Shown here: positions 39,001 to 48,000 of the stretch, one piece after another
Numbering within the stretch: position 1 is the first letter of the stretch
Layout: each line of letters begins with the position of its first letter
Origin: Candidatus Cloacimonadales bacterium
Lineage (GTDB): Bacteria; Cloacimonadota; Cloacimonadia; Cloacimonadales; JAIOQZ01
Direction of reading: 5' to 3'
Length of the DNA: 64,000 nt
Assembly (NCBI GenBank): GCA_963662655.2
Contig: CAXXTU010000002.1
Location: 3,200,001 to 3,264,000 of the forward strand
Program-made: the position numbers

Positions 39001-42000
39001 TGGATCTCTGTGGGCTCTTCGAAGCCTTTTTCAGCGATTGCGTGCAGCGCACCTTCCGAAAGCCCCAGTTCATTGAAATTCATCTCTTTTTGCATATTAT
39101 CTCCATTTACCTTGAAAATTATGGAGATTGAATATACATAAATTTCAGGGTCATTGTTTTTGCTCTCTGAACTAACAATAACAAATTACAGCTTCAGGTC
39201 AATCTAAAACAACAAATTATTGATTGCGAAATAGAAAGCTCGAGACGAAGTATTTTTTATGTGCTTTCCATGTCAAAACAATTCGGTATTTATTTTTTAT
39301 ATAACTTCGGTTGCATCGGCAACTCTGATATTGGAGGAATGGAAATGATGTAGGACAAATCATGCAATCGATCTTAAAACAGCCAGGAGAGCCTTGAAAA
39401 ATAATGTCTGAAAACATGGCCCATTTTCTTTAACAAAATTGGGGATCATGAATGAAAAGTACTTGACATCCGATATAATTCTTTCCGTTCTCTATCAACT
39501 GATTACTTCAATTATGTGCTTAATAATGACATGGAGGAAAAATGGTTCCAAGGTTTCTCTTGTTGTTCTCCCTCTGCTTGATTCACATTTGTCTCTCAGG
39601 GCAGATTATCCCGACGAATGGAATGGTCGTCCATTATCCATTTAATGGAGATCATCTCGACGCCAGCGGCAACGATCTGCATCTTTCTATGATAGGTGAT
39701 CCCATTCCCTGTCCGGACCGACACGGGAATCCCAATTCAGCATATTTCCTCGACGGTAGCGGCGACTACTTCTTTGTCGAAGACGATCCGCTGCTACGAC
39801 CCTTCCAATACACAGTCTCTGCCTGGTTTTGCTCGACGGGGCTTAATCAGTATGGCCGCATCCTGGAAAAGCGCTACAGCATCCCAAGCTTTCCGTGGAC
39901 ATCCTTTCTCCTGGAATACAACCGCGATCTCCACACAGCCGAGACACAACTGACCACCAATACAGGGAGGGTCGTTCTCAACTCGAGCGGTTCCGCACCG
40001 GCAAACGAATGGTGCCTTCTAACAGTTACATTCGACGGCGATTCGCTTCGACTCTATCTGAACGGACAACTGGACACGGCAATCCCCAAGACCGGAAATG
40101 TCTCTTACAGCTCCGAATCGCTCTTCATCGGTGTCGCTCATGGCGGTTGTAGCACAGCATATTGCTTCGACGGGGCAATCGACGACGTGCTGATCTACAA
40201 CAGGCCCTTGACAAACACCGAGATTTTGGATATGTATGTCGATGTTCCTGTTCCCGAAAATGTCGTGTTAACCGCTTCTGGAAGCGGAATCAATCTATAC
40301 TGGAATGCTGTTCCGGGAAGTGTCACATACAACGTGTATTCCGCTCCGATCCCAGATGCGGTGTTCCCTGCGGGTTATACCTTGGAGCAGGCGGGACTGA
40401 TCGTGTGCAGTTGGATCGATTCCGCCTCCATCGGCGAGCAGAAATACTACGTTGTGACTGCCGTGAAGGAGTGAAGGCGTACTCCCTTAGCCTGCTGATT
40501 CGAACGCAACTTTTTGTGCTTGACATAACTCCATGAAAACGTGTATGAAAAGCGCACAATACCAATTGGAGTTATGAATGACGTTGTTTGAAGCTGCGAG
40601 AAATGAAGTTGCGTCGCTGACCGGCCGCAAACGCCTGGTCGGTTTGTATATGAGATTCAAGGAGTTTCTGGAAGAGCGCGAAGAAGAGATGACGGAGCTT
40701 GCCGGGACTTTTTGCGATGAATCCGTCGAGGATCCTCAGGAGCAGGCGGACCGGTTGTTTCTGCTGACGCTGGTCAGCTTCAACGCGGAGGATGACCGGA
40801 AGGTCGAGATGTATGTTACCCGTGCGAAGGAAATCCTTTTCCGGATGGGCGAAGACGATCAGGCGTACGTGATGAACGATATCATGGTGGGTATTCATAC
40901 AGATGCGCAGGAATACAAGACCGTAATCCCCTACGCGCTCGAGAGCCTCAGGAATTACGAAAAGCTGAACGACGAATACCGCCTTGCACAGGTGTTGAAC
41001 AACCTTGGAATTTCCTATTCGAGCCTGAATCGTTTCTCTGATGCCCTGCCCGTGCTTAATCGTGGGCTCGCCTTGAATCTGAAGAACAACGAACCTGATA
41101 TCGTCAATTCATACAATAACATAGCGAGCCTTTACCTGCGTGTGCGGCTGTACAACAAAGCTCTCGCAACCTACAAACTTGCGTTGGAAGCATGCGAGAA
41201 ATTCGGGCTTGAAGCCATGGAATACATCGTGCTGAACAATATTGCCAACATCAATACGGACCTGGAGAACTACTCCGAGGCATTGCAGTATTACCGGCAA
41301 GCACTTCAGAAATGCGGTAACGACTACAGAAACATGGCGATTACAATCAACAACATTGGTATGGTCTTCTATTTTCAAGAGAAGTACAGCGATGCGATCG
41401 AGAACTTCGAGAAATCGCTCAAAATATGCCAGGAAAAACGCTTCTCCTATACCGAAGCGAAGAACCTGTACAACATTGGACACACCCATACGAAGATGAA
41501 TCGTTTCGACGAGGCCCGCACTCTTCTGCTGGAGGCTCGCCCGATGGTGGAAAACACGGGAGACTTACGGCTTCTGGCTGATGTCGATATTGCCCTTGCC
41601 GAATTGAACACTGCTACCAAACGCTATGATGAAGCGCTCGCGATCCTGGAGGATGTCTATCGCCGTCCCCATGACGAGTACAAGGATGTGGTCAATGTTG
41701 ATAAAGCATTTATCATGCTATACCGTGAGACGGATGACATAGAAAAACTGGCATTTTATCAAAGTAAGCTTCTTGAAAAATATGAGCAGAGGCACGAGAA
41801 AGATTTCACGCAACTGGTTGCCGAGATGCAAGTCGCGCTGGACTTGGAATTGAAGGAAAAAGAAGCCGAAATGCAGCGCCAGAAAGCGCTTGAGTTGCAG
41901 AAGAAGAACCAGGAGATTCTCGAGCAGAAGCATAAGCTTGAGAGGACCCTCGAAGAGCTTCACAAATCGGAGATCAGCTACGAGTTCCTGCAAAAGGAAT

Positions 42001-45000: not shown

Positions 45001-48000
45001 GGTTCGTATTGTGGCGGCCTTGTCGGCGGCGCTATCGAGAGTAGTACGATTACAAACTCAAATGCGCTCGGAAGCGTCAGTGGCGATAGTCGGTGCGGTG
45101 GCCTGGTCGGAACGCTGGAAGGTTCCACGGTCGAAAACTGTTATGCTCATGGAAGCGTTCGTGGCGTTAGTCAATGCGGCGGTTTGGTTGGAACCTTTGA
45201 AGATTCGACAGTCGAAAACTGTTATGCGCTTGGAGGCGTCAGTGGCGAAAGCCAGTGCGGCGGTTTGGTTGGATCGCTGGAAGATTCGACGATCGAAAAG
45301 TGTTTCAGCGCTGGTTCAATCACTGCAAATGAGACTGTCGGTGGACTGGTTGGGTACGTTGCAGGAACCAACAATATAACGGGTTGCTTCTGGGATACGG
45401 AAACATCCGGGCAATCAACCAGCGAGGGAGGCGAAGGAAAAACGACTGCCGAGATGAAATATCTATATATGTATCACGGCGCTGGCTGGGACCTCGTGGC
45501 GGAAACGAGAAACGGAACCGCCAACACCTGGGATATCGACTTGAGCGGCACGGTAAACGACGGTTATCCCTTCCTCTCCTGGCAAGATGGAGATGTCGAA
45601 CTACTCGGCGGACCGAGTGGTTCGGGTACGAGCTCCGCCCCCTACCTCGTCGCTACCCTGTACGACCTCTACTGGATGGGTGCGAACAGCAACAAATGGA
45701 GCAAGCACTATCTTCAAACCGCCGATATTGACGCCACCGATACCGCAAACTGGTACGACAGTACGGGATTCTATCCGATCGGATCGACTTATTTCTCATG
45801 TTTCTCTGGTGAATATAATGGACAGGGGTATTCAGTAAACGGGCTGTTCATTCACGGGAGTAGTCGGGAATACGTAGGTCTCTTCGGATATGCCAGAAAC
45901 GCAACGATCAGAAATGTGATGGTGATCGAAGTCGATATACAAGACAGCGGATGCGCTGGCGCTCTTGCCGGAAGCGCTTATAACTGCACAATAAACGACT
46001 GTCAAAGCAGCGGTACGGTTGAGTCGTACGAAGCCGGTGGGTTAATTGGAAGGCTGATGGGCTCAACGCTCACCCGTTGTTCCAGTTCGGCGTATGTGAA
46101 TGGATCGGATGGCGCAGAGAACGCCAATGGCGCTGGCGGACTCATATTCAGCATCTCCGAATCTACAGTCCGCCATTCTTATGCGACGGGCGATGTGGAT
46201 TGTTATAGTATTGCCGGAGGGTTAACTTGTTCTCTATCCAACGGCGATATATACGATTGCTTCAGCACTGGAAATGTGGACGGGTTATGGAGCGGGGGTC
46301 TGGTTGGCAAAAACAGTGGTGAAATCTATTATTGTTACAGCACGGGCTCCGTTGCCGACGATCTCTGTGAAGGAGGCCTTGTCGCCTTCGATAATGGTGG
46401 ATGCGTTACCGGATCGTTCTGGGACATCGAGACATCGGGAAGAAGCGCGAGTGCTGGCGGAACGGGGCTCACGACCACCGAGATGCAGACGGTTTCTACC
46501 TACCTCGACGCCGGTTGGGACATGGCCGGAGAGGCGTTGAACGGTACCGAGGACATCTGGATTCTGCTGCCCGACCAATATCCTTCCTTTACGAACAACT
46601 ACATTGCGCCGGTCATTACGGTGGTAAAAGACGTTCCGGGCGACCAGGGGCACCAGCTCGAATTGGCCTGGAATTCTTGCGAGTTCGACACCTTCTATAA
46701 TCCCAGTCAGTTCTACGTGCTGTGGAGGCTGGCTGGCAATACCCGCGCCATTGCGCATGATGCCGTTATCATCGACCATCCTGTCGATTTCATCACGCCC
46801 GAGGAAGACGATACGCGCCCCATCATCCTGCAGGATCGCGATCAGTATTGGAGCTATGTGGTGACGGTCCCGGCATCGGCATTTCCCGTTTACGGCTACG
46901 TAGCGCCCACAGTGGTCGATTCCTGCGCCGCGATGACAGCCGCCGAATACACCTCTACCTACAAGGTAATCTTTTACTTCGAAGATGGATACCTCTCGTC
47001 GCAGTCCGTATCCGGTTACTCCGTAGATAATGTTTCCCCGTATGCCACATCGGGTGTAACGCTGGCATTGGGCAATACCCGCACCAGCTCAGCTACGCTT
47101 CGCTGGGACGAAGTCACCGAAGGCGGCTTTGGCGGCAATAGCTATCCTGAGTTAAATGGCGTCTGGTATCGCGTATATGCCGGTGATACACCCGATTTTC
47201 AATGTAACGAATCGACGTTGTTTCAGACAACAAGAAACACAAGTATCGAAGTCGATCCGGCAGATGCAGCAAGAAGATTTTTCAAGATCGTGGTGAGCGA
47301 TCAGCAATAATTGGGAGAGAAACATGAGATTCAGAACATTTCTTTTTATCAGCATCTTCGTCTTTTCAGTGAACCTTTTTGCCTTCGCAGGCGGAGACGG
47401 CTCGGAGGGAAATCCCTATCAGGTCAGCACCGTTAACGATCTTCAGGATTGCCAGAACTTCCTTACTTCGCATTTTATCCAGATTTGCGATATCGACGCA
47501 AGTGAAACATCCGGCTGGAACGATGGTGCCGGCTTCAGCCCCATCGGCGATGATTCGAATATGTTTCGCGGATATTACGATGGCCAGGGATACACGATCG
47601 ACGGGCTGTACATCGATCGTCCGAGTAGAAATTACACCGGCTTCTTCGGCAAGGTGAGAAATTGTGAATTACAAAATATCCGATTCGAAAATTGCAGCAT
47701 TACCGGAGCGATGTGCGTGGGAGCACTGGCAGGTGATGGCAGTAATATCTACGTTTCCGGCTGCTATGTCGATGGCACCGTATCGGGAAGTGAATATGTG
47801 GGATCCGTTGTTGGACATACTGGTGATGATTCATTGATTCAAAACTGCTCAAGCAATGGCTCTGCAACATCATCCGGTAGACAGGTGGCCGGAATCACCG
47901 CCTACTTGGGGCAGCTTTCATCCATCAAAAGGTGTTGTAATACGGCGCAGGTATATAGTCCGTCACGATGTGGTGGTATTGCTGGATTGTGTGCAGGCAA

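Follow-up and report, generated by a model that had tools for sequence, protein, structure and literature searches.

The stretch of Candidatus Cloacimonadales DNA analysed here (64,000 nucleotides; the window) carries a cassette that, judged from comparative sequence data, is real: the gene of a soluble sigma54 activator, a palindromic site, a -24/-12 promoter-like site, the gene of a predicted pseudo-receiver and genes for GLUG-repeat proteins. The first-pass annotation had proposed a family-level module that links an activator and its enhancer to a sigma54 promoter, a pseudo-receiver and an exported protein, and the comparison bears it out. Genes named in that annotation were paired with loci here through their position and description only. 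In the activator clade here called type I, whose small gene encodes the pseudo-receiver, the small gene adjoins the activator in 24 of the 25 assessable loci, an exported protein comes next in 23 of 24, and a sigma54-like site lies shortly upstream of the small gene in 23 of the 24 adjacent loci. As an overall account, we give an even chance to a sigma54 switch that acts locally and carries its own regulator.

The activator gene (40578..42944, forward strand) encodes 788 residues that Pfam, NCBIfam, hydropathy and motif evidence divides into a TPR input of 450 residues, a long coiled linker, a sigma54-type AAA+ domain and a Fis-type HTH with the recognition helix TPKSMERR. The Pfam matches are TPR_12 and TPR_1 repeats, Sigma54_activat (PF00158; E 3e-61), the AAA lid and HTH_8. 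The AAA+ features of a sigma54 enhancer-binding protein (bEBP) are present, namely Walker A (GETGTGKE, 512), a GAFTGA-type loop (NAFTGA, 559), Walker B (LFLDEVG, 580) and the R-finger and sensor II motifs (FRADLYYRL, 637; FPGNVREL, 697); the Walker motifs and loop are thus intact in the window copy, as had been claimed. Also as claimed, the genome has eight such paralogues (730 to 791 aa), and none has a transmembrane segment (maximal 19-residue hydropathy, 0.94 to 1.47; n = 8). The window activator scored below every NCBIfam equivalog cut-off shown, including TIGR02974 (251 bits; cut-off, 444) and TIGR02915 (287 bits; cut-off, 502.6), and it has no receiver domain. Its TPR region and linker matched a soluble TPR kinase (26%, E 3e-12), and the PDB sequences matched by the TPR part were generic peptide-binding TPRs (such as kinesin light chain and LGN) that give no clue to a ligand. 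With neither kinase nor receiver, the protein looks like a sensor and an output joined directly. We infer that it is made from its own promoter and controlled through the cytoplasmic TPR solenoid and coiled linker; the signal would most likely be a protein or peptide.

The -24/-12 promoter-like site, TGGTAC-N5-ATGCA (43044..43059, forward strand), lies 41 nt upstream of the small gene's ATG at 43085, which is preceded by the ribosome binding site AAGGAG (43073..43078, forward strand). TGGCAY sites had been described close to the next gene; the position holds in the window, but the site reads TGGTAC. Seven of the eight activators have a -24/-12 site within 400 nt downstream, the number first reported; six are strict fits and one has GT for GC at -12. 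In 3.8 Mb, with both strands counted, the strict pattern has 54 occurrences. The eighth activator (C2:3105975-3108218), earlier listed as having no site, has a small gene with a -24 element, and it is the -12 GC that is absent. Further bEBP sequence features are the Fis-type HTH, a palindrome ~80 to 150 bp before the -24/-12 site and the presence of rpoN in the genome, where HU/IHF-family genes were also found.

Two probable enhancer sites lie at the end of the activator gene: the palindrome TTGACGATTTCGTCAA (42945..42960), directly after the stop codon, and the perfect palindrome TGACGATATCGTCA (42776..42789), within the coding sequence. The intragenic copy coincides with the codons F-D-D-I-V-I of the linker before the HTH and was found in 6 of the 17 activators of the same helix class checked. 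The codons GAC GAT nnC GTC are fixed in all six, and only 18 of 243 degenerate columns are invariant overall; we count the retained silent positions as support for a probable second enhancer copy in the activator codons. The pattern [TA]GACGAnnTCGTC[AT] occurs at nine sites in the genome, six of them at four activator loci. The remaining three, with no sigma54 site in the following 300 nt, look like coding DNA and are taken as chance matches. Because these four paralogues have similar recognition helices and a nearly identical palindrome, they probably cross-activate one another.

A wider comparison of 79 loci gives strong comparative support to the idea that the recognition helix tracks the adjacent palindrome, although helix class equals clade, so that few independent events, a handful at most, underlie the match. 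With motifs written by eye after viewing these same loci, and with kin that are not independent, the exact K-class motif adjoins 16 of 20 activators with the helix KSxERR and none of the other 59. At one mismatch 19 of the 20 carry it, and the single miss ends at a contig edge. For the R class, GGWCR-N4-YGWCC is present in 8 of 13 loci and beside one near-R helix, the other five of the 13 being without the exact motif; the fit was 2 of 2 in the RRAL class, 3 of 4 in the QNAI class and just 3 of 9 in the YS class. Palindromes of the EST and YAL classes have variable spacing, and both classes were left unscored. The genome background for the helix-class motifs is 0.001 to 0.014 per 490 nt. In genome G008, an orphan pseudo-receiver operon bears the R motif and the R-class activator lies 21 kb away. 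Given this comparative support, the palindromes that the HTH very probably binds are those where its own gene ends, one intragenic and one past the stop; with similarly high confidence, an AAA+ ring would assemble and fire the -24/-12 promoter ~100 bp away.

From gene order, the first product would be the small protein, followed by the exported GLUG/LamG-type proteins. The small gene (43085..43423, forward strand) encodes 112 aa, assigned as a pseudo-receiver from the structure model, fold and profile matches and the alignment. It has N-C after beta1, where there is no acidic pair, and Ser51 at the phospho-Asp position. Among 21 members, the phospho-Asp column holds Asp in five, the two columns after beta1 hold an acidic pair in none, and the alignment has no conserved Lys. 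By these residues the window protein is not a canonical phosphorylatable response regulator. A CheY-like receiver fold and homology are nonetheless predicted by several comparisons. The model is a (beta/alpha)5 fold (pLDDT 77), and its Foldseek matches were pseudo-receivers and receivers (best E 1e-3), topped by those of CikA and KaiA. The family profile reached E 6e-4 against the PDB, with 9 of 12 matches named as response regulators, and hhalign gave a match to an NtrC receiver (probability 86.5, E 4.5e-6); the Response_reg match was weak and confined to 3 of the 21 members. The five small ORFs first said to align and to fold as receivers do so, with 17 to 28% identity to the window copy, and a sixth pseudo-receiver gene, without an adjoining activator, lies at C2:2228353-2228604.

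Low identity among the small-gene paralogues and the loss of all catalytic receiver residues would suit a decaying response-regulator leftover with no present role, as would its faster change: the small protein is 46% identical to its G001 orthologue, the activator 81%. The small genes have intact frames with ribosome binding sites, however, and match sequences in 48 of 232 genomes, some true receivers at the low end being counted among them. In addition, all 9 type I and all 4 type II small-gene pairs have a pN lower than pS (0.36 against 0.73 for the window gene and its G001 orthologue). These 13 pairs point to purifying selection and largely refute decay, which we regard as highly improbable.

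In our preferred reading, to which we assign about equal chances of being right and wrong, the non-phosphorylatable receiver-fold protein would bind and damp the activator in the style of PspA and PspF, so that output is limited or pulsed. A complex model of the window activator and small protein scored 0.36, a mark that was attained by 116 of the 157 solved pairs and 2 of the 215 mismatched ones (at 0.60 or below, by 18 of the 157 and both mismatches), so that by the tool's counts such a weak pass is more often wrong than right, and it may reflect likeness to solved receiver-AAA+ structures. The best of three controls scored 0.00, and the runs shared at least 71% of contacts with a partner pLDDT of at least 69. 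The model thus lends weak support to binding.

It gives no sign to the effect and is also compatible with a co-activator, whose positive feedback would latch each cassette on or off per cell and vary the surface without DNA rearrangement. The small protein is encoded first in the operon that is switched on, and its gene keeps company with that of the activator, as a co-activator's might; one genome also contains many paralogous cassettes whose cargoes differ. However, where the literature consulted names a protein that partners a sigma54 activator, it is an anti-activator, PspA acting on PspF (PMC4987338) and FleN and NifL on others, and four activators with nearly one site would blur independent latches. 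We consider the co-activator unlikely.

The small protein might instead leave its own activator untouched and report that the cassette is on to another signalling protein, be it a histidine kinase with TPRs, an NtrC of the receiver type or a further soluble TPR module. The pseudo-receiver is not specific to TPR activators; the family also occurs between or after the genes of TPR-kinase/NtrC pairs (L226-L230), where the NtrC regulators are of the receiver type and have no TPR domain, so the present type of activator is not a requirement for it. The genome encodes many soluble TPR proteins, of which at least 6 of 18 checked share the linker motif LAEMQ..FE.EKKE and some are fused to kinases, and the top fold matches, those of CikA and KaiA, would fit such a role. 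Against it, small-gene type and clade follow the adjoining activator, and the complex model pairs the small protein, if weakly, with that activator; we judge this account unlikely.

Three GLUG-repeat genes follow on the forward strand. The first (43483..47310) encodes a predicted exported protein of 1,275 aa with a signal-peptide-like start and a C-terminal domain without a Pfam match. The second (47324..52036; 1,570 aa) has its own ribosome binding site and begins 13 bp past the first; from this spacing we infer that both are probably on one transcript, giving an operon with two cargoes. The third (52214..54898; 894 aa) follows a 177-bp gap, has no pseudo-receiver gene in front and is probably transcribed separately. 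A 9-bp hairpin at 52058..52081 (forward strand), found by eye as a possible end of the sigma54 transcript, was not among the hits of the terminator scan, and a sigma70-like 9-of-12 match lies at 52150-52179; both scans were at chance level (for sigma70, 19 matches against 16.1 expected; sd, 3.3). The second cargo, and the near-identical site shared by four paralogues, do not agree with the earlier description of single surface proteins under their own activator.

Four of five cargoes had been credited with a new terminal domain. Three align over the length of that domain; the fourth (after C2:3194203) does so at the domain's end only. The fifth has a weak FlgD/T9SS-like end, and a weak PorU-tail/FlgD match was recorded for one paralogous cargo. 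The tail of the window cargoes matched no Pfam family, and neither Pfam nor NCBIfam showed a PEP-CTERM tail on any of the three. Starts of the signal-peptide type were noted for the cargoes, homologues of SprA and PorV over the cut-off are present in the genome, and the GLUG/LamG-type proteins probably leave by a type IX-like route.

Since many loci have the small gene directly against the cargo gene or overlapping it, it could serve the cargo as a cytoplasmic chaperone or export pilot, or merely couple translation. The cargoes, though, are unrelated across cassettes (GLUG; LamG/FG-GAP; LTD/choice-of-anchor J), and their exchange leaves the small gene beside the activator (GLUG in L001, a different 1,520-aa protein in L009 and L010). 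It is also kept without an exported cargo in L016, L156, L005, L032, L033 and L037 and precedes a membrane-protein-like gene in L006 and L038, and the third window GLUG gene does without it. We hold a cargo-directed role to be very unlikely.

At the other activator clade (type II), a second, unrelated small-protein family occupies the same slot. All eight activators of the genome have a small neighbor gene, that of the eighth being a divergent gene of the second family, and the "other small ORFs" once treated as exceptions at two activators belong instead to this conserved family. Among 66 TPR activators, 19 had no small gene in the DNA fetched. The second family had no Pfam match, and an Atlas search gave weak leads. 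Its model (pLDDT 90) has mostly PH-type proteins in the top structural rows, with a best Z of 7.4 (rmsd 3.8, 80 aligned) and then 6.8 (rmsd 2.4, 73 aligned) against an ordinary level of 8 for the tool; this weak match does not show the modeled fold to be new. Linker length tracks small-protein type, at 73 to 74 residues in 24 of 24 type I and 38 to 43 in 23 of 23 type II activators, an association that amounts to one branch of a quick tree.

More tentatively, Cloacimonadota may have made modular one-component sigma54 switches, in which a cytoplasmic TPR sensor joined to the AAA+ domain bypasses phosphorylation and a regulator, encoded separately in the operon that the switch activates, works in trans. 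The same less likely reading would have the enhancer in and behind the activator's own gene, the helix and site retuned together, and the trans regulator a receiver in one clade and an undescribed PH-like protein in the other. If true, feedback would shape the expression of large surface proteins, in pulses or by latching, and the set of these proteins could change, with variation that needs no DNA inversion.

A scan of genome contigs with the activator alignment returned only generic sigma54 activators of other phyla, of which 80 of 599 were kept and used as an outgroup only. The AAA-HTH parts of the TPR-kinase/NtrC systems cluster with those of the TPR activators, and other phyla fall outside (support, 90). 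Type I may have arisen from those systems separately from type II: FastTree (92) and IQ-TREE (85) joined type I with them. A tree that keeps every TPR activator in one group was nevertheless better by 3.4 log units, and such a single origin was not rejected (p-AU 0.66).

The cassette offers a concrete model of gene regulation, naming the genes controlled, for a phylum without cultured members, whose large exported proteins probably shape the attachment or feeding of these anaerobes. The set of controls known for sigma54 activators gains a TPR input, along with two candidate protein partners. The helix series with its matching sites is a test set for the DNA-reading code of the Fis-type HTH and a source of orthogonal sigma54 parts, and the enhancer inside a coding sequence would be a clear case of dual-use DNA.

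The literature searched held no account of this cassette. Found in Cloacimonadota, it is a variation on known logic, similar to that of PspF/PspA and PrsR. In the Psp system the pspF and pspA genes are adjacent, and the target operon begins with the anti-activator gene; here, too, the activator gene adjoins its target promoter. A separate small operon protein is the candidate regulator, a role comparable to that of PspA in excerpts of PMC4987338. PspF, however, lacks an input domain and PspA forms a coiled coil, whereas here a 450-residue TPR input is paired with a pseudo-receiver or PH-like small protein, and the window activator scores 251 bits against the TIGR02974 cut-off of 444. In the PEP-CTERM regulatory system PrsK/PrsR/PrsT, according to excerpts of PMC1569441, a sigma54 promoter and upstream activator motif precede exported-protein genes that share a C-terminal domain. 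PrsR is a single receiver-type regulator with a scattered regulon, a membrane kinase and a lipoprotein TPR; here there are many one-component TPR activators, each located beside a target that a small gene leads, their sites differ, and the window activator falls short of TIGR02915 (287 against 503 bits). Closer at hand, NtrC/TPR-histidine-kinase systems of the same phylum (L226-L230 and, in the window's own genome, C2:1099774-1103033 and C2:2155357-2159308) share the pseudo-receiver family and a sigma54 site, and L226-L228 an exported cargo as well; unlike them, the window activator has neither kinase nor receiver. A receiver fold without phospho-chemistry recalls KaiA, CikA, the FleQ/FlrA N-domain, FrzS and Rap-Spo0F. 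Rap TPR proteins bind a receiver, and 3q15 is among the fold matches of the window small protein. Most of those matches are either parts of larger proteins or genuine phospho-carriers, whereas the present protein, only 9 to 20% identical to them, has a gene of its own that opens a sigma54 operon.

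The cassette proposed by the first-pass annotation is real, with well-supported DNA and gene architecture, and is wider than first reported. In the window, domain search of the activator ORF (40578 to 42944, + strand) identified TPR repeats, a coiled linker, a sigma54 AAA+ domain, and a Fis helix-turn-helix (HTH). The Walker motifs are intact and an NAFTGA loop is present; no membrane segment was found in the protein, which scored under all cut-offs shown for NCBIfam equivalogs. A 16-bp palindrome begins at the first nucleotide past the stop codon, followed by a -24/-12 site (TGGTAC-N5-ATGCA, 43044 to 43059), a ribosome-binding site at 43073, and the ATG (43085) of a gene for a 112-amino-acid (aa) protein. 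Next come genes for two GLUG proteins of 1275 and 1570 aa, the second 13 bp past the first, then a hairpin (seen by eye) and, past it, a third GLUG paralogue preceded by a 177-bp gap. Immediately upstream of the activator lies a gene for an exported LamG protein of 310 aa (39542 to 40474, +) with the C-terminal domain common to the GLUG cargoes; searching the genome with an HMM of seven such tails gave 24 matches, 22 of them at C termini. The window also encodes a 2197-aa beta-helix protein (4303 to 10896, +), a transposase-like protein with an integrase core (rve; 12162 to 13409, -), and, at 18166 to 21312 (+), a fibronectin III protein (1048 aa) that has a 4Fe-4S motif close to its end.

The source genome (3.81 Mb, 99% complete), as first described, encodes eight TPR activators (730 to 791 aa), and in seven cases a -24/-12 site follows at a distance of no more than 400 nt. 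Six of these seven sites match a pattern that occurs 54 times in the genome on both strands, and six of the nine genome sites of [TA]GACGAnnTCGTC[AT] are located at four of the eight activator loci, an arrangement beyond what chance would give. A 7014-aa exported protein adjoining the third activator cassette is encoded just before the window (G000:C2:3169815-3190859, -). At 28103 to 32449 (-), the window encodes a 1448-aa protein that combines TPR repeats with a sigma54 AAA+ domain. It belongs to a separate class of larger size than the eight, and a 1320-aa protein (C2:2904777-2908739) is similar to it.

Activators at 79 loci were sorted by HTH recognition helix. Since the motifs were written by eye post hoc and the classes are clades, the match of helix and site is a pattern from few independent events and not a formal test: [TA]G[AT]CG-N4-CG[AT]C[AT] was found exactly in 16 of the 20 K-class loci (KSxERR, KAVERR) and in none of the 59 others, GG[AT]C[AG]-N4-[TC]G[AT]CC in 8 of 13 R-class loci and three times at another locus, whose helix is near-R, and the own-class motif in 2/2 RRAL, 3/4 QNAI, and 3/9 YS loci, with a background of 0.001 to 0.014 per 490 nt. 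In one relative (G008), the R motif stands at an orphan operon, 21 kb from an R-class activator without an adjoining small gene. The proposal that single surface proteins are each under their own activator is not supported as worded, since four of the eight activators are K class and therefore probably cross-activate.

A second perfect palindrome (42776 to 42789) lies within the activator codons for D-D-I-V and is carried by 6 of 17 K-class activators. The GAC, GAT, and GTC codons are identical in these six, and the middle codon always ends in C despite an Ile/Ser change; by comparison, a single codon was kept in just 18 of 243 invariant degenerate columns. This constancy points to selection on the DNA of the site, although the six activators are related to each other.

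That the small ORF encodes a receiver-fold protein was borne out. The model of the 112-aa protein is (beta/alpha)5, its best fold matches are to receivers and to the pseudo-receivers of KaiA and CikA (E value, ~1e-3), and the family profile matched PDB chains of receivers (best, 6e-4) and could be aligned to an NtrC receiver. The family is without the acidic pair; at the phospho-site column, 5 of 21 members have Asp, and the window copy has Ser. In all nine pairs compared, pN was lower than pS. A complex model of the full activator and the 112-aa protein gave weak support for binding (0.36, versus 0.00 for the best control), a mark attained by 116 of 157 solved and 2 of 215 mismatched pairs, with 18 of the solved pairs and both of these mismatches scoring no higher than 0.60. 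The runs had at least 71% of contacts in common, with partner pLDDT of at least 69; the score may mirror resemblance to solved receiver-AAA+ structures, and it came without an interface.

Activator homologues were searched for in 41 genomes, and 60 regions around part of the listed matches with frames of ~700 to 870 aa were read, best E values first, giving 66 activators with the eight included and three fetched loci left out. All three named homologues were from Cloacimonadota, which, together with the named homologues of the second small-protein family described below, places the source organism in this phylum. In the long-linker clade, the pseudo-receiver gene adjoins 24 of 25 assessable activators (one more is at a contig edge), with a sigma54-like site shortly upstream in 23 of those 24 loci and, downstream in 23 of 24, a large protein whose start resembles a signal peptide, in agreement with the family-level module first suggested. 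A profile of 21 pseudo-receivers had matches in 48 of 232 genomes of the phylum, low scorers including true NtrC-type receivers. Among 22 further loci read from this search (12 re-read with a wider flank), 11 have a K- or R-class activator directly upstream (two of which were counted in the 66), 8 lie beside a kinase or other, receiver-type genes, and at 3 no activator adjoins. A sixth pseudo-receiver gene of the source genome (G000:C2:2228353-2228604, -) has a sigma54-like site and is followed by the gene of a 1097-aa exported protein; it is without an adjacent activator and resembles the copies next to TPR-kinase/NtrC pairs. At locus L231 (G129), the pseudo-receiver gene is displaced from the unit head, 58 bp past a 1500-aa cargo that follows the TPR activator, and precedes a second cargo. 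In G003 (L035 and L186), the downstream small gene has been relocated within the genome along with its sigma54 site; the activator is now trailed by a sigma54 site and flagellar-looking genes.

The "other small ORFs" noted as exceptions do exist, but they align as one family of 65 to 110 aa. It had no Pfam match; its confident model (pLDDT, 90) leans tentatively towards a PH-like fold (best Z, 7.4). There were 144 matches among representatives at 50% identity, seven being long proteins matched via short repeats, and 72 of 232 genomes contain the family by match; all four taxon-named homologues were from Cloacimonadota. Three proteins of 1500 to 3300 aa (P0001, P0039, and P0060) matched the profile in many short parts, which may be repeats or artefacts. 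Next to short-linker TPR activators, the gene is placed either downstream or divergently; it often precedes an exported protein, often with TGGAAC promoter variants. The eighth activator, described as having no site, indeed lacks a full one, but its locus is not bare: a 67-aa member (G000:C2:3108400-3108603, +) is divergent from it, with a -24 element only. The linker has 73 to 74 residues in 24/24 activators with the pseudo-receiver gene and 38 to 43 in 23/23 with the second family, the two lengths being two sides of one single tree branch. Neither small gene was present within the DNA read for 19 of the 66 activators.

Pseudo-receivers also occur with TPR histidine kinase/NtrC pairs, where at L226 to L228 they stand upstream of exported proteins. 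The TPR part and linker of the window activator can be aligned to a soluble TPR kinase of this kind; the TPR part resembles generic peptide-binding TPRs only. Soluble TPR modules of a similar kind are found repeatedly in the genome, in some cases as kinase fusions. It is reasonable to read the activator as a short cut in which sensor and activator were fused, but the trees leave the order of events unfixed. The source genome also encodes at least 18 other TPR proteins akin to the activator input part (L208 to L223). Most are without a membrane segment, some carry a fused histidine kinase or adenylate/guanylate cyclase domain, and together they form an expanded input module.

The architecture, sites, gene order, and selection of the cassette are features read in sequence. 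Each HTH would very probably bind the adjacent sites, with sigma54-dependent transcription following; the genome encodes rpoN and two HU/IHF-family genes. The small protein would then act back on the activator as an inhibitor, for which we see about an even chance, proposed because of the PspF-PspA analogy and because activator and small gene remain together despite cargo change or loss. SprA and PorV homologues are encoded, and a type IX-like route would be the candidate path for cargo export. The most interesting step, that the activated operon would provide the regulatory domain in trans, is put forward as a hypothesis.

Automatic annotations of other phyla include TPR-bearing sigma54 activators, so the TPR/sigma54 domain pairing by itself may not be new. 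We found no literature on this cassette or on Cloacimonadota TPR-type sigma54 activators in a search with most subscription journals outside its scope; domain surveys in supplements may list such activators. In the parts covered, the sources treat the PEP-CTERM/PrsR system (PMC1569441), bEBP classes and PspF-PspA (PMC4987338), a T9SS possibly in Cloacimonadota (PMC11285876), the Cloacimonadota cell envelope (PMC8542988), and sigma54 regulons, this last part leaving the phylum unmentioned (PMC12316311). Set beside such systems, the cassette is known sigma54 logic in a new variant.
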